From the NCBI GenBank assembly GCA_964617245.1, contig CAZTWF010000106.1:25811-89810 (forward strand): a stretch of DNA of 64,000 nt. Direction: 5' to 3'. Origin of the DNA: an uncultured Nitrososphaerota archaeon (lineage in GTDB: Archaea; Thermoproteota; Methanomethylicia; Methanomethylicales; Methanomethylicaceae). Of this stretch, positions 2,536 to 35,253 are shown piece after piece. The notes below the pieces were generated by a model. The model made no database searches, had not been told where the DNA came from, and saw only the letters and a program-made list of their open reading frames with translations. The translations under genes and the position numbers were made by a program. How positions within the stretch are numbered: the stretch's first letter is position 1; every line of letters starts with the position of its first letter.

Positions 2536-3357
2536 ATGTCTTTAAAAAGAAATTATAATTTAACAATATGTATTCCTTCTTCTATAGTTTCTTTAGTTGA
2601 TACTCTTATTGAGAAAACCATACTTATTGGACAAATTGCTAGGACTATTTCCATCTACAGAGTAAACAGAATTTTAATTTATATGGATTCAGAAAAAAAG
2701 GATCTATTTTTCATAAAAGAATTATTAGAATATTTAGAAACTCCACAATATCTTAGAAAATATTTATTTCCTATAAGTAAAAATCTTAGATATGCTGGTT
2801 ATTTACCACCATTAAGAACACCACATCATCCAACAATAGACTCTGATATTGAATATAGAGAAGGTTTTGTAATAGAGAGTAATGAGAGAGGATCTATTGT
2901 AGATATAGGATTCAAGGAACCAATAACTTGTCCATATCCTCTTATACGTAATAAAAGAATTTCTTTAAAGAAAGAAAAGGAAACATGGATTCCAGTAAAA
3001 AAAGAAGAGATTCCATATTATTGGGGATATGAGGTAATTATAGATCTAAAGGGTTTACATAATCACTTAGTCAAATATAATTATGATTATATTATAGCAA
3101 CTTCTAGATATGGAAAACCAATAAATATAGTATTTAATGAAATTAAAAAAATGCTTCAACCTGGTAAAAATATAGCAATTCTATTTGGTTCTCCACGAGA
3201 AGGATTACATAATATTTTCCTTAAATATTCATTAAATCTTGAAGATTATTGTGATATTATAGTTAATATGGTTCCAAATCAAGGAACACAAACTATAAGA
3301 ACAGAAGAAGCTTTAATGATTTCATTAGCTATTTTGTCCTTTATTGATGAGATCTAA
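2536..3357 (+). CDS. putative SPOUT-class RNA methyltransferase (DUF171/COG2106-like)
   Basis: 273 aa; C-terminal ILFGSPREGL resembles SPOUT SAM-binding motif; conserved position upstream of rpl3 in archaea. Confidence 0.55.
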   Translation: MSLKRNYNLTICIPSSIVSLVDTLIEKTILIGQIARTISIYRVNRILIYMDSEKKDLFFIKELLEYLETPQYLRKYLFPISKNLRYAGYLPPLRTPHHPTIDSDIEYREGFVIESNERGSIVDIGFKEPITCPYPLIRNKRISLKKEKETWIPVKKEEIPYYWGYEVIIDLKGLHNHLVKYNYDYIIATSRYGKPINIVFNEIKKMLQPGKNIAILFGSPREGLHNIFLKYSLNLEDYCDIIVNMVPNQGTQTIRTEEALMISLAILSFIDEI

Positions 3358-17341: not shown

Positions 17342-17896
17342 TTGAAGATAAAGAATTTAATTATAACAATAGGTGGTCCACCAGGATCTGGCAAATCTTA
17401 TTGTGCAACTCAATTAGCTAGTATTTATAAAATTCCACATTATTCTATTGGTAAAATATTTAGAGATATGGCTCGAGAACGTAATATGACAATTGAGGAA
17501 TTTTCAAAATTAGCTGAAAAAGATTATACAATAGATATAGAATTAGATAAAAGAACTATGGAATTAGCAAAAAGTGGTGGATGTATTATAGAAGGAAGAT
17601 TAGTCTCCTTTTTCTTGAGATCTTTTCCAAATATACTAAGTTTTTATCTTACAGCATCATTTGAAGAAAGAGTAAAAAGAATTGCTTTAAGAGAAGGTAT
17701 TAGTATTGAAGAAGCTGAAAAAAAGACTAGAATAAGAGAAGAAAGTGAAAAAATGAGATATAAAGTAATTTATAATATTGATGTAGATGATTTGTCAGTT
17801 TATGATTTTGTAATAAATACATCAAAATGGAATAAAGAAAAAATAGTTCTCTTATTAAAACAGATAATAGATTTATATTTAGGGGAAGACGATTGA
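17342..17896 (+). CDS. cmk: cytidylate kinase, archaeal type
   Basis: P-loop GGPPGSGKS; similarity to archaeal Cmk. Confidence 0.85.
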   Translation: MKIKNLIITIGGPPGSGKSYCATQLASIYKIPHYSIGKIFRDMARERNMTIEEFSKLAEKDYTIDIELDKRTMELAKSGGCIIEGRLVSFFLRSFPNILSFYLTASFEERVKRIALREGISIEEAEKKTRIREESEKMRYKVIYNIDVDDLSVYDFVINTSKWNKEKIVLLLKQIIDLYLGEDD

Positions 17897-18855
17897 GTGG
17901 AGAACTTTTAATAAAAGATGAAGAGAAAACAAATCCAAATTTTGGATGGAAACCTAGAGAACGTCCTATAAAAGAATATATTGAAACAGGTGTAATAAAT
18001 CTAGATAAACCTCCAGGTCCTACTAGTCATGAAGTAGTAGCTTGGGTTAAACGTATGCTCTCTATAGATAGAGCAGGTCATGGTGGCACTCTTGATCCTA
18101 AAGTAACTGGAGTTTTACCAATAACACTAGGAAGAGCAACACGACTTATTTCATTTATTATGAAATCAGGAAAAGAATATGTTACTATTGTAGAATTACA
18201 TGAAGATATTAGTGAAGAAAGATTAAGAGAGGTTATTAGTGAATTTATTGGTCCAATTTATCAAATACCTCCTATAAGATCTTCTGTGAAAAGAGCTTTA
18301 AGAATTAGAACTATAAACTCAATAAAAATTTTAGAAAAAATTGGAAAATTTGTTTTAATGAGAGTAGATTGTGAAGCTGGTACTTATATAAGAAAACTCT
18401 GTCATGATATAGGTGAAGTTCTTGGTTGTGGGGCTCATATGAAGGAACTTCGTAGAGTAAGAGCTGGACCATTTAGAGAAGAAACCTCTATTACTCTTTA
18501 TACCCTTCTAGATGCTATAACATTATGGAAGGAATATAATAATGAAAGTCTAATAAGAAAAGTTATTATACCAATTGAAGAAGCTATTATAGATTTTCCT
18601 AAGATATATGTAAGAGATTCTGCTATTGATGCTCTATGTCATGGTGCAAATTTAGCAGCACCTGGTGTATTACGTTTAAGTAAAGGAATAAAGCCAGGAG
18701 ATATTGTTTGTGTTATGAGCTTAAAAGATGAACTTGTAGGAATTGGAAAAGCTTTAAAATCTAGTGAAGAAATTTTAGAATTAGAACATGGTATTATTGT
18801 AGATATGGAAAGAATAATAATGGAACCAGGTTTATATCCAAAAGGTTGGGAATAA
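17893..18855 (+). CDS. cbf5: tRNA/rRNA pseudouridine synthase Cbf5 (H/ACA RNP catalytic subunit)
   Basis: TruB motif GHGGTLDP, C-terminal PUA domain; uninterrupted ORF (no intron). Confidence 0.92.
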   Translation: MSGELLIKDEEKTNPNFGWKPRERPIKEYIETGVINLDKPPGPTSHEVVAWVKRMLSIDRAGHGGTLDPKVTGVLPITLGRATRLISFIMKSGKEYVTIVELHEDISEERLREVISEFIGPIYQIPPIRSSVKRALRIRTINSIKILEKIGKFVLMRVDCEAGTYIRKLCHDIGEVLGCGAHMKELRRVRAGPFREETSITLYTLLDAITLWKEYNNESLIRKVIIPIEEAIIDFPKIYVRDSAIDALCHGANLAAPGVLRLSKGIKPGDIVCVMSLKDELVGIGKALKSSEEILELEHGIIVDMERIIMEPGLYPKGWE

Positions 18856-24081: not shown

Positions 24082-24916
24082 AAATCCATGTGTTGCAGGA
24101 GTTTTTTATAATGGAGAAAAAGAACTTTTAAAAAAACAAATATCTTGGTGTTTTTTACATAAAGTTGGTCCTAGAATCTTACCTAGTGGTATAGTAAAAA
24201 ATGAAAGAGAAGTTATTTCTTTAATTTCACCACATGCAGGATATATATATTCTGGACCAGTAGCAGCTCATGGATATTATTATATATCAAGAGAACCAAT
24301 ACCAGAAGTAGTTGTAATTATTGGTCCAAATCATACAGGTATTGGTGCAGGTATAGCTATCTGGTGTGAAGGCGAATGGATTACTCCTTTAGGAAAAGTT
24401 GAAGTAGATTCAGAACTTGCTAATATGTTGATAAGAGAGGGAGTAGCAGAAAAAGATGAAACTGCACATATATATGAACATTCAATAGAAGTTCAAATAC
24501 CATTTCTTCAATTTATATATCAAAATAAATTTAAGATATTGCCTATATGTATGCTTCTTCAAGATTATGAAACTTCTTATGAATTGGGAAAAACTTTAGC
24601 AAAATTATTAATTAATAGATCAGCTTTAATGATTGCAAGTACTGATTTTTCACATTATGTATCTTATAATGAAGCCTATAAAAAAGACTCTTTAGCAATA
24701 GAATATATAACAAAAATGGATGCAAAATCACTTGAAAAAATTATTATAAAAGAAAATATAAGTATGTGTGGTCCAGGACCAGTAATGACCATATTAGAAG
24801 CATCAAAAAATCTTGGAGCAAGAGAATGTAAACGTTTATGTTATGCTACATCTGGAGATACTTCAGGTCCAAGAGATGAAGTTGTAGGATATGGCTCTTT
24901 AGTTATAATTAAGTGA
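24065..24916 (+). CDS. Memo1-like protein (AmmeMemoRadiSam system protein B family)
   Basis: [32 protein letters not shown] motifs characteristic of Memo family. Confidence 0.75.
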
Positions 24917-31692: not shown

Positions 31693-31810
31693 TTTTATAA
31701 TAAGTCTACTGAAAGTTTATTACTTAAATTATAAAAGTAGCTTTTAGTGCAAGATTGACAAGAGAAATGTATAAACTTTTCTCCTTCTCTTATATCATAG
31801 GGGGTAAAAA

Positions 31811-33611
31811 ATGCCATTAAGACAACCTATTGTTACAGTATTAGGTCATGTTGATGTTGGAAAAACTCTCTTGTTAGATAAAATAAGAGGAACAGCTGTT
31901 ATGACAAGAGAAATTGGGGCCATGACTGCTTAAAAAGCAGTGGCAGACCCAACATATTGGTGCTAGTTTCCTACCTATGAGTGTAATTGTAAATTATTGT
32001 AGAGCTATTATAAAGAATTTTGAAAGTAAACTTCAAATTCCTGGTTTATTAGTAATTGATACACCTGGTCATGAAGTATTTTCAAATTTAAGATTTAGAG
32101 GAGGAGCAGTTTCTGATATTGCTATTCTTGTTATTGATGTATTAAAAGGTGTTGAAAAACAAACAGAAGAATGTATTGAAATACTTAGATCAAAGAAAAC
32201 ACCTTTTGTAGTTGCAGCAAATAAAATAGATAGAATAGATGGATGGAAACCAAATCCAAATAAACCATTTATTGAGTCATATAAAATGCAAGAATCTTAT
32301 GTAAGATCAAGACTAGATGAATTAATTTATAAAATTATTGGTGAATTATCAAGATTTGGTTTTTCTTCTGATAGATATGATAGAGTAAAAGATTTCACAA
32401 GAACTATTGCCATAGTTCCAACAAGTGCTATTACAGGTGAAGGTATTCCAGAACTTCTTGCTATTCTTTGTGGTTTAGCACAACAATATCTAAAAAGTCG
32501 TTTAACAATTACAGAAGGACCTGGAAAAGGTGTTATACTTGAGAAAAAAGAAGAAGCTGGACTTGGTACAACAATAGATGTTATTTTATATGATGGTATC
32601 ATAAAAAAAGGTGATACTATTATTGTTGGTGGAATTGAAGGTCCAATCATAACAAAAGTAAGAGCTCTTTTACTTCCAAAGCCTTTAGATGAAATGAGAG
32701 ATCCAGAAGATAAGTTCCTTCTTGTTGATAAAGTAGTAGCTGCTGCTGGTGTAAAAATTGTTGCAACTAATCTTGAAAAAGCCATAGGAGGAGCTCCTAT
32801 AATTGTAGTTAGTGATGAACAATCTATTGACTCTATTAAAAATAAAATTAAAGAAGAAATTGAAGAAATAAGATTCACATCAGATATAGATGGTGTTATT
32901 GTAAAAGCAGATACGTTAGGCTCATTAGAAGCTCTTATTAGATTTCTTAAGAATTCAGGCATACCTATTAGAATCTCTGATATTGGACCAGTTAGTAAAA
33001 AAGACATTATAGAGGCTACTATTGTAAAAAGGAAAAAACCAGAACTTGGTGCAGTATTGGGATTCAATATAGAAGTTACTCAAGAAGCAGAAATAGAAAG
33101 TAAAAGTAGAAATATTCCTATATTCGTTAGTAATGTAATATATCATGTTGTTGATAACTTTAAGGCTTGGTATTCAAAAATAGTAGAAGAGTTACAAACA
33201 AAAGAATTTAGTAAGATTATTCTTCCTGGAGCTATAAAAGTTCTTCCTGGATATGTATTTAGAAGAAGTGATCCTCCTATATTTGGTATTGAGGTTTTAA
33301 TTGGAACTATTAAGCCAGGTTATTCATTAATGAAGGAAAATGGTGAAATTATAGGAGAAATTATGCAAATACAAGAACATGGAAATAATCTAAATGAAGC
33401 AAAGAAAGGTGCTAAAGTAGCAATTTCAGTAAGAGGTAATTTTACAGTAGGTAGACAAGTTAAAGAAGGAGATATACTTTATGTTTATGTAAGTGATAAT
33501 GATATATTTCTATTAAAAGAAAAATTTAGAGATAAATTATCTCAAGAAGAATTAGAATTACTTGATAAAATACTAAAAATGCAATTAAGTGGTGAGATTA
33601 TTAAAATTTAG
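31811..33611 (+). CDS. infB: translation initiation factor aIF5B (IF2 homolog), interrupted by a 22-nt BHB intron (31925-31946); mature product ~592 aa
   Basis: Exon 1 (frame 2) gives [38 protein letters not shown] then hits UAA; exon 2 (frame 0) continues [10 protein letters not shown]...IDTPGHE...; splicing at the BHB bulges gives REIGAMTQHIGA, matching canonical REAGGITQHIGA spacing. Confidence 0.85.
31925..31946 (+). other. predicted BHB-type (tRNA-splicing-endonuclease) intron within infB mRNA
   Basis: Helix 31914-18/31948-52 (5 bp); bulge 31945-47; helix 31919-22/31941-44 (4 bp); bulge 31923-25; helix 31926-30/31936-40 (5 bp); loop 31931-35; contains in-frame TAA; length is 1 mod 3 as required to join the frames. 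Confidence 0.75.
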
Positions 33612-33671: not shown

Positions 33672-34049
33672 TTGGTAGAATTTAAATTAGTGATATCTAA
33701 TCCAGAAGATGGTACATCAAAAACAGTAGTAGTTAAAGACGAACTTGCTCATGTTTTTATTGGACTAAAAATAGGCGATTTCGTTGATGGAGCACTATTT
33801 GGTTATCCCAATAAGAAACTTATTATAACTGGTGGAAGTGATAAAAGTGGTATTCCTATGCGTCCTGATGTACAGGGTGGAGGAAAGAAATATGTACTAC
33901 TTGCTGGCCCCCCTGGCTATCATCCTAAAAGAAAAGGAGAAAGAAGGAAGAAACTGGTAAGAGGAAATACAATAACAGAAGACATTGTACAAATAAACTT
34001 AGTTATAAAGGAGGAGAAGAATGAGCGAGAACAAACAGCCAGAGTGTAA
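33672..34049 (+). CDS. rps6e: 30S ribosomal protein S6e
   Basis: [10 protein letters not shown]..., [16 protein letters not shown] motif. Confidence 0.88.
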
Positions 34050-35253
34050 TATTGGTCTTACAGGTCATGTAGATCATGGAAAAACTACTCTTGTAGCTGC
34101 ATTAAGTGGTATATGGGCAGCTCGTCATAGTGAAGAACTGAAAAGAGGTATAACTATAAAATTAGGTTATGCTGATACTACCTTTAGAAAATGTCCTGAA
34201 TGTCCTCCTCCTGAATGTTATACTACAAAGGAAATTTGTCCAATACATAATGTTAAGACAATTTTTCTAAGAAAGATATCCTTTGTAGATGCACCAGGTC
34301 ATGAAAGCCTCATGGCTACAATGCTATCAGGTGCAGCATTAATGGATGGTGCAATACTAGTAATTGCTGCTAATGAAGAATGTCCTCAACCACAAACCAG
34401 AGAACATCTTGTGGCTTTAGAAATAACAGGAATTAAAGATATTGTAATCGTTCAGAATAAAATAGATGCTGTAGATAAACAAAAAGCCTTAGAAAATTAT
34501 AAACAAATTCTTTCATTTATAAAAGGAACAATTGCAGAAAATGCTCCTATTATTCCTGTATCTGCTTTATATGGGACCAATATAGATTATCTTATTCAAA
34601 CATTAGAAGAAAAAATAAAGACACCTTATAGAGATCCAACAAAACCTGCTAGAATATATATAGCAAGATCTTTTGATGTGAATAAGCCTGGTACTTTTCC
34701 AAAGGATTTGAAAGGAGGTGTGATTGGAGGTTCTCTTGTACAAGGAAGATTAAGAATTGGTGATGAATTAGAAATACGTCCTGGTATGAAAATAGAACAA
34801 GGAGGAAAAACATACTATGAGCCAATATATACATATGTTGCTAGTTTAATGGCTGGTGGACAAATATTCAAAGAAGTAGGTCCTGGAGGTCTAGTAGGTA
34901 TTGGTACCTATTTAGATCCTTCTATTACAAAAGCAGATAGTCTTGTTGGTAATATTGCAGGAAAACCTGGCACATTACCACCAGTCCAAAATGAAATAAC
35001 TATAGAATATTTCCTACTAGAACGTGCTGTTGGTACAAAAGATTTACAAAAAGTTGAACAAATAAAAGTGAGAGAAAACTTAATGTTAGTAATAGGACCT
35101 GCAGTAACTTTAGGAGTAGTTACTTCAATTCGTAAAAATGTAGCTCAGTTATTACTTAAACGTCCTTTATGTGCTGAACCTGGAATGCGTATTGCTATAA
35201 GTAGACTTATTTCTAATAGATGGAGACTTATTGGATATGGTTTCATACAATAA
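34021..35253 (+). CDS. eif2g: translation initiation factor aIF2 gamma subunit
   Basis: [10 protein letters not shown], zinc knuckle CxxC...CxxC, EF-Tu-like domains. Confidence 0.93.

Follow-up and report, generated by a model that had tools for sequence, protein, structure and literature searches.

In the genome of an uncultured Nitrososphaerota archaeon placed in the family Methanomethylicaceae, the gene encoding the translation initiation factor aIF5B is interrupted by 22 nucleotides (nt) which are very probably a genuine bulge-helix-bulge (BHB) intron, removed from the pre-mRNA. The gene lies in a stretch of 64,000 nt (assembly GCA_964617245.1, contig CAZTWF010000106.1, positions 25,811 to 89,810 of the forward strand), here called the window; the coordinates of the gene and its parts are counted from the first letter of the window and refer to its forward (+) strand. 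aIF5B, the archaeal IF2/eIF5B, is a universal translation initiation factor in archaea. In the window its GTPase motifs G1 and G2 are 103 nt apart instead of 81 nt, and removal of the 22-nt intron (31925 to 31946) restores both the reading frame and the conserved motif. The resulting distance is the one found in 108 intronless loci, in agreement with the first-pass annotation of this DNA, which had proposed that the excision reproduces the canonical G1-to-G2 spacing.

Structure of the predicted intron

Exon 1 (31811 to 31924) comprises 38 codons from the ATG at 31811 to ...REIGAM and holds the G1 motif or P-loop. A Shine-Dalgarno-like GGGGGT, as read from the sequence at 31800 to 31805, precedes it by 5 nt, supports the start at 31811 and presumably functions in initiation. 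Exon 2 (31947 to 33611) comprises 554 codons plus the stop codon, in a frame different from that of exon 1, and its first ATG is at 31977. Between the two, an in-frame TAA (31931 to 31933) ends translation of the unspliced mRNA after 40 codons (...REIGAMTA).

The segment from 31914 to 31952 folds into a canonical helix-bulge-helix-bulge-helix (hBHBh') motif of 5 base pairs (bp), 3 nt, 4 bp, 3 nt, and 6 bp. The outer helix is entirely exonic, with TTGGG (31914 to 31918) pairing with CCCAA (31948 to 31952), while the central 4-bp helix joins the exonic GCCA (31919 to 31922) to the intronic TGGC (31941 to 31944), which is TGGC or TGGT in all lineages. The 5' three-base bulge is TGA (31923 to 31925), with a cut predicted from the established BHB rule between 31924 and 31925, and the 3' bulge is AGA (31945 to 31947), with the corresponding cut predicted between 31946 and 31947. 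The inner stem-loop, CTGCTT-AAA-AAGCAG (31926 to 31940), has six pairs, all of which show compensatory changes among relatives. The bases of the motif are exactly those listed in the first-pass annotation, which had given the inner helix 5 bp and a loop at 31931 to 31935; those pairs stand, but a helix of 6 bp with a 3-nt loop is possible as well.

In the minimum free energy fold (-15.9 kcal/mol), the 5' bulge is slipped by one base and reads AUG, not UGA, with the canonical register isoenergetic at -15.7 kcal/mol. U31941 can pair either with A31922, giving the canonical 4-bp central helix and the bulge UGA, or with A31925, giving a 3-bp helix and the bulge AUG, at a gap of 0.2 kcal/mol; where the third bulge base is U, as in some lineages, the canonical register alone is possible.

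Loose BHB-like motifs, defined as 4/4/4, occur nine times in the window. The strict motif, with at least 5, 4, and at least 5 Watson-Crick pairs, occurs once, for an expectation of 0.125 per 64-kb strand, and it is located exactly at the break of the aIF5B frame. A covariance model built from 30 homologous sequences likewise has the aIF5B site as its sole match in the window, with 51.8 bits and an E value of about 8e-13 (filters off). This model, R1, finds one site per intron-bearing locus and contains exon sequence, so that it is site-specific by construction; with this proviso, its restriction to the aIF5B site led us to reject a dispersed or mobile element. A self-splicing group I or group II intron was rejected too, given an insert of 22 to 33 nt versus a ribozyme core of hundreds of nt, and given that no Rfam match was obtained in the window at the gathering threshold.

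Reading frame and predicted product of the spliced gene

Excision of 31925 to 31946 joins 31811-31924 to 31947-33611 and gives an open reading frame (ORF) of 592 amino acids reading ...REIGAM|TQHIGAS.... The predicted junction in the mature mRNA, ...GCC ATG|ACC CAA..., falls between codons 38 and 39, directly before the conserved switch-I threonine. It had been claimed beforehand that cutting out 22 nt deletes the stop, yields REIGAM|TQHIGA and leaves a protein of about 592 residues, and this is borne out by the ORF, which ends at 33611. The predicted product aligns with Aeropyrum pernix aIF5B (5fg3) without any gap over residues 3 to 583 (E = 7e-194), hence also without a gap at the junction, and it is colinear with 1g7r as well. 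The GTP_EFTU profile covers positions 5 to 185 in the spliced product and only 67 to 185 in the truncated ORF, which is without P-loop and switch I; exon 1 supplies profile positions 5 to 66.

Both sides of the junction are under selection as protein. Exon 1 shows proportions of synonymous (pS) and nonsynonymous (pN) change of 0.74 and 0.11, a ratio of 0.14, over 32 distinct homologous sequences. The first ten codons of exon 2 (31947 to 31976) show a pS of 0.71 and a pN of 0.06, and at the protein level they are 27/28 identical across lineages. In the window these ten codons sit between a TGA stop and the first ATG, a stretch that offers no start codon (ATG, GTG, or TTG). Strong selection on codons that lack a start means that they can be translated only when joined to exon 1.

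This bears directly on the possibility that the locus makes two polypeptides, a 40-residue P-loop peptide and a 544-residue remainder, or a truncated protein from an internal Met, with the RNA structure in another role, for instance in termination, protein binding, or translational coupling. The ATG at 31977 does exist and is the one used by gene callers. Nevertheless, the ten start-less codons upstream of it, conserved as protein while synonymous change is saturated, dispose of both versions. In addition, the internal start in the gene calls varies from lineage to lineage, the truncated product would be devoid of G1 and G2, and in intronless lineages nested among the intron-bearing ones the two parts are continuous, joined at precisely the predicted junction. 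We therefore regard separate or truncated products as very improbable and retain the intron as the explanation.

Homologous inserts in related archaea

We collected 160 loci from species-representative genomes and metagenomes and measured in each the DNA distance from G1 (GHVDxGKT) to G2 (TQHIG). It is 81 nt in 108 loci and 103 to 114 nt in 36, while a 37th locus with an insert is cut by the end of its contig. An insert at the identical codon boundary, always between ...GGG GCC ATG and ACC CAR..., is thus present in 37 of 161 sources, these 37 belonging to the Methanomethylicales and Nezhaarchaeales. The inserts measure 22, 25, 27, 29, 30, 31, or 33 nt and represent all three classes modulo 3, and canonical excision leaves an intact aIF5B of 587 to 593 amino acids in every intron-bearing lineage. 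Comparison with infB from related genomes, which the first-pass annotation had proposed, hence places the homologous inserts at one codon boundary and in the BHB register throughout, never at a non-BHB location.

Among the carriers are Methanomethylicus species, two metagenome-assembled genomes of Nezhaarchaeales, and, with complete genomes, Methanosuratincola petrocarbonis LWZ-6 and M. verstraetei LCB70. In the complete Methanosuratincola genomes the intron is 27 nt long, at computed coordinates of ~134914-134940 (+) in CP130488.1 and ~550818-550844 (-) in CP186953.1, with the predicted junction ...GGGGCCATG|ACCCAGCAC....

A short, stop-bearing insert could resemble a disrupted gene if seen in a single genome, and the truncation of all public gene calls would also be compatible with a pseudogene or with a sequencing or assembly artefact. 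The same insert in 37 independent assemblies, two closed genomes among them, contradicts an artefact, a proviso that had been attached to the 22 nt from the outset. As for a pseudogene, purifying selection is strong on both exons, as the exon 1 ratio illustrates, and the downstream ORF is intact in every lineage; aIF5B is universal in archaea, and no second copy was present among the hits for these lineages. A decayed gene or a faulty sequence is, in our opinion, hardly credible beside an intron.

The nearest relatives of the spliced protein are those of the Methanomethylicaceae ("Verstraetearchaeota"), and the gene calls of most relatives, down to about 61% identity, have only 525 to 564 amino acids. 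All public aIF5B gene calls in intron-bearing Methanomethylicales and Nezhaarchaeales (proteins P0001 to P0063) begin at residues 42 to 67, without the P-loop. Two of them, P0008 and P0043, run upstream into the intron and show 'WQ' before TQHIGA. Three loci initially appeared to carry inteins in aIF5B (L026, 3001-5612; L109, 1501-4112; L083, 31-2641); we rejected these, as no insertion exists and the apparent 870 to 970 extra bases arose when tblastn extended the aIF5B match into the G domain of the adjacent aIF2-gamma gene.

Covariation and invariant sites in the BHB motif

A single register, TTGGG / GCCA / TG-N / variable hairpin / TGG-Y / A-N-A / CCCAR, accommodates each of the 30 distinct sequences, with an inner helix whose length ranges from 5 to 10 bp across homologues. 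Pairing reaches 98.7% in the outer helix, 100% in the central helix, with G-C or G-U at its first pair, and 93.9% over the first 6 pairs of the inner helix. Covariation was counted on the unmodified MAFFT alignment A4, in which gaps occur in the apical loop only, and also on a loop-trimmed (anchored) version. Standard pairs are formed by 97.1% of the alignment cells versus 83.3 ± 1.1% with shuffled partners, and 57 cells are changed on both sides versus 15.9 ± 3.2 in shuffles (0 of 500 reach this value), a comparison which overstates independence because the sequences are related and which does not amount to a probability. Two other results do not depend on the independence of the sequences, namely, the slide control, where shifted registers pair at 28 to 44% only, and the diversity of pair types, since compensatory changes are found in 6 of 6 inner-helix pairs with up to five pair types per pair.

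The bulges are conserved in a complementary manner. Over the same 30 sequences, the exonic TG of the 5' bulge is invariant and its intronic third base is A, T, or G; in the 3' bulge, the final A, which is exonic and the first base of the Thr codon, is invariant, and the intronic middle base is A, G, T, or C. Invariant exonic and variable intronic bases are the pattern expected of a cut between bulge bases 2 and 3. The constraint extends to synonymous positions, as GGG GCC ATG|ACC, down to its third positions, is found in 36 of 36 intron-bearing loci. Among the 108 loci without the intron, this Gly codon is GGA in 49, GGC in 28, GGT in 22, and GGG in 8, and the junction Thr codon is ACA in 35, ACC in 31, ACT in 21, and ACG in 19. 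These comparisons point to synonymous sites that are frozen only where the RNA structure is needed.

Stop codons within the predicted introns

A stop codon in the frame of exon 1 is present in 30 of 30 distinct introns. Among the in-frame introns (0 mod 3), 22 of 22 contain one, versus 27% of composition-matched shuffles. The stops comprise TAA, TAG, and TGA and are spread over at least eight positions between codons 4 and 13. Such retention looks like selection for a fail-safe stop in the unspliced mRNA. An intein or another in-frame protein insertion was rejected, considering that all inserts contain stops and that their translations are not conserved.

Read-through or recoding of these stops, for instance by pyrrolysine at TAG in these methylotrophic methanogens, would produce a switch-I loop extended by 9 to 11 residues. 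It draws on the 22 of 30 distinct inserts that are 0 mod 3, eight of which have TAG as their only stop. However, the remaining in-frame inserts use TAA or TGA, two carry two stops, and eight inserts, that of the window included, shift the frame; furthermore, what is conserved is the RNA pairing and not a peptide encoded by the insert. The chance that the stops are read through is practically negligible.

Programmed ribosomal frameshifting, or translational bypassing (hopping) across the 22 nt as in phage T4 gene 60, deserves consideration since the window insert is 1 mod 3, has a stop close behind, and contains a stem-loop, and because ACT (31925 to 31927) and ACC (31947 to 31949) are both Thr codons and possible take-off and landing sites. 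The homologues speak otherwise: with inserts of 0, 1, and 2 mod 3 the frame relation is not fixed, the take-off codon after ATG varies (ACT, ACC, TCT, TCC, GCT, or ATG), and so does the position of the stop, over the range given above. The feature that is conserved, a 3-4-3 BHB geometry with covariation, is not required for bypassing. We consider a ribosomal detour extremely improbable.

Gain and loss of the predicted intron

In a neighbour-joining tree of the (spliced) proteins, the intron-bearing genes form one clade of Methanomethylicales and Nezhaarchaeales-like sequences, within which several intronless genes are nested (L008/P0015, L082, L010/P0035, and P0037). The nested intronless genes bear the exact predicted ATG|ACC junction. 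L082, the closest relative of the intron-bearing L090, keeps GGG GCC, whereas two other nested loci have drifted at the formerly frozen sites, L008 to GGA and L010 to GGT GCA. L082, L008, and L010, whose junctions lie near locus position 3100 or 1600, appear to be recent and older precise losses of the intron. The simplest reading of the tree is one ancient gain followed by at least three or four exact losses, and exact loss at the predicted junction is indirect evidence for the existence of a spliced RNA. For the intron of cbf5, a gain followed by secondary precise losses has been proposed, with loss via a copy of the spliced mRNA suggested (PMC2738675).

Predicted splicing pathway and possible role of the intron

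BHB substrates are cleaved between the second and third base of each bulge. To our knowledge, the splicing endonuclease EndA and the RNA ligase RtcB are universal in Archaea. We infer the identity of the two enzymes, the exact cut positions, and splicing in vivo: EndA and RtcB are proposed because the motif is identical to their known substrate and because of their universal presence in Archaea, while the cut positions follow from the established BHB rule and are supported by which bulge bases vary. In the pathway that we propose, exon bases 31914-31918 of the pre-mRNA would pair with exon bases 31948-31952, and exon bases 31919-31922 with intron bases 31941-31944, and together with the intron stem-loop they would make up an hBHBh' substrate of EndA. 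The endonuclease would then cut each 3-nt bulge behind its second base, at 31924/31925 and 31946/31947, and an RNA ligase, presumably RtcB, would join the exons into a mature mRNA encoding the complete 592-residue GTPase. Unspliced mRNA would yield the 40-residue peptide only, owing to the TAA in the intron loop.

Several points weigh against this reading, among them the relatedness of the sequences in the shuffle control. The fold energy of the window motif differs from that of shuffled sequences by z = -2.2 (6 of 200 shuffles), which is weak single-sequence evidence and is not relied on here; it is the comparison of relatives that is decisive. No gene for EndA or RtcB was seen in the window, and ARAGORN detected no tRNA genes in the window or in 38 related loci, hence no intron-bearing tRNA as a sign of the machinery at work. 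When 5.8 billion proteins were searched with a profile built from 26 spliced N-termini and the 240 returned proteins were compared with the spliced products, no junction-spanning protein was more than 85% identical to an intron-bearing lineage; since that collection is mostly DNA-derived, the absence of such a product says little. Finally, if transcription and translation are coupled, ribosomes might in principle arrive at the intron, which lies 114 nt from the start codon, ahead of its splicing.

The intron might also act as a checkpoint that ties aIF5B synthesis to the activity of the tRNA-splicing endonuclease and ligase, thereby coupling initiation capacity to tRNA and rRNA maturation as an archaeal counterpart of HAC1/XBP1-type switches, with the stop as a fail-safe against a dominant-negative switch-I insert. 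Its retention across a class-level clade, the frozen synonymous sites of the motif, and the stop in every distinct intron leave such a role possible. Conversely, its repeated precise loss in nested lineages argues that these archaea can do without the intron and so speaks against a regulatory role that is essential; on balance, we find the checkpoint unlikely.

Gene context in the window

The window is a stretch of archaeal chromosome with a GC content of 28.9% and contains a large cluster of genes for ribosomal proteins, SecY, adenylate kinase, and cbf5. aIF5B belongs to a conserved run of genes encoding L7Ae, S28e, L24e, NDK, aIF5B, S6e, and aIF2-gamma. As listed, the S6e ORF (33672 to 34049) and the aIF2-gamma ORF (34021 to 35253) overlap by 29 nt, and several other neighbouring genes overlap by a few bases. 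The first ~2.5 kb hold hardly any convincing ORF, and 511 to 855 is low-complexity sequence. At the gathering threshold, Rfam returned no family across the 64-kb window, despite its dense information-processing genes.

Other split genes in the window were sought by a loose scan for BHB motifs combined with ORF fusion. The overlaps between neighbouring genes make for many false positives at gene boundaries in such a scan, and none of the 35 hits was convincing, as nearly all bridge adjacent genes via weak AT-rich helices. A 22-nt hit at 24337/24359 was dismissed since it is located inside an intact gene. cbf5 itself (17893 to 18855, +) is a single uninterrupted ORF of 320 amino acids with the domains DKCLD, TruB_N, TruB_C_2, and PUA, so that the earlier statement that cbf5 is intron-free in this window is correct.

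Comparison with known spliced transcripts

An intron in the cbf5 pre-mRNA was reportedly described in Aeropyrum and Sulfolobus by Watanabe in 2002 and Yoshinari in 2006. Over more than two decades, no archaeal coding sequence other than cbf5 has been known to carry an intron spliced by the endonuclease, and aIF5B, if the prediction is true, is the second such case. The archaeal mRNAs on record as processed by the splicing endonuclease are cbf5 of Crenarchaeota, where a relaxed BHB motif interrupts the coding sequence, and Haloferax HVO_1309, with a 46-nt intron in the 5' untranslated region (PMC10485636, PMC7714728, PMC2738675). The first-pass remark that protein-gene introns in archaea are described essentially only for cbf5 agrees with this literature, given that the HVO_1309 intron is in the untranslated region (PMC7714728, PMC10485636). 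A 2023 review considered it likely that more endonuclease-spliced archaeal mRNAs remain to be found (PMC10485636). Full-text literature searches, subscription-only papers aside, returned no report of an aIF5B/IF-2 intron or of protein-gene introns in Methanomethylicia. The aIF5B intron would thus be the second BHB intron in an archaeal coding sequence, without precedent either in a translation factor or in this class.

Since two of the carriers, M. petrocarbonis LWZ-6 and M. verstraetei LCB70, are methanogens in culture whose genomes are closed, the prediction is directly testable. Its practical consequence is that aIF5B calls are short by 41 to 66 residues and without the P-loop across a whole clade, a systematic error in a universal marker gene that affects annotation, marker-based phylogeny, and completeness estimates, and gene finding in archaea needs to take BHB motifs into account. 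A single gain, a number of exact losses, and the frozen synonymous sites would together constitute a clean natural experiment in how a messenger copes with an intron of the tRNA type and keeps it, and the stop in every intron raises the question of quality control or regulation.

The closest parallel is the cbf5 intron of Crenarchaeota (Yokobori 2009, PMC2738675). Both introns are short, lie inside an archaeal coding sequence, are bounded by a BHB-type motif, and depend for their removal, which in aIF5B is a prediction, on the tRNA-splicing endonuclease and a ligase. Both adjoin a catalytically essential residue, a position that makes splicing obligatory, and both are patchy within one clade, a distribution interpreted as gain with later precise losses (PMC2738675 for cbf5). 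They differ in that the aIF5B motif is a strict canonical 3-4-3 hBHBh', whereas for cbf5 a relaxed motif has been described and connected with the (alpha-beta)2 endonuclease (PMC10485636). Moreover, splicing in Crenarchaeota has been shown experimentally, while in the Methanomethylicales and Nezhaarchaeales we deduce it from comparative sequence evidence. HVO_1309 of Haloferax volcanii (Schwarz 2020, PMC7714728) is an mRNA substrate of the splicing endonuclease, as aIF5B is predicted to be, and its short intron (46 nt) also has a BHB motif. Its intron is nevertheless placed in the untranslated leader, where no ORF is broken, while that of aIF5B splits the coding sequence and carries a stop.

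The BHB introns of archaeal tRNA and rRNA have the same architecture, with a 4-bp helix between two 3-nt bulges and further helices on either side, and a length of tens of nt, and the same enzymes and bulge positions are presumed for aIF5B. What sets the aIF5B intron apart is its messenger host and an exonic half built of codons (V-G-A-M and T-Q) with frozen synonymous sites; neither ARAGORN nor Rfam detected a tRNA- or rRNA-like context at the aIF5B intron. In eukaryotes, the HAC1/XBP1 mRNAs are cleaved by IRE1 and joined by tRNA ligase or RtcB as a regulated stress switch. Like the splicing proposed for aIF5B, this relies on protein enzymes and not on the spliceosome: a short intron is cut out of an mRNA at paired stem-loop sites, the frame changes, and a tRNA ligase joins the exons. 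It differs in using IRE1 and not EndA, in its recognition motif, and in its known role as a regulated switch, and the analogy with aIF5B is one of mechanism only.

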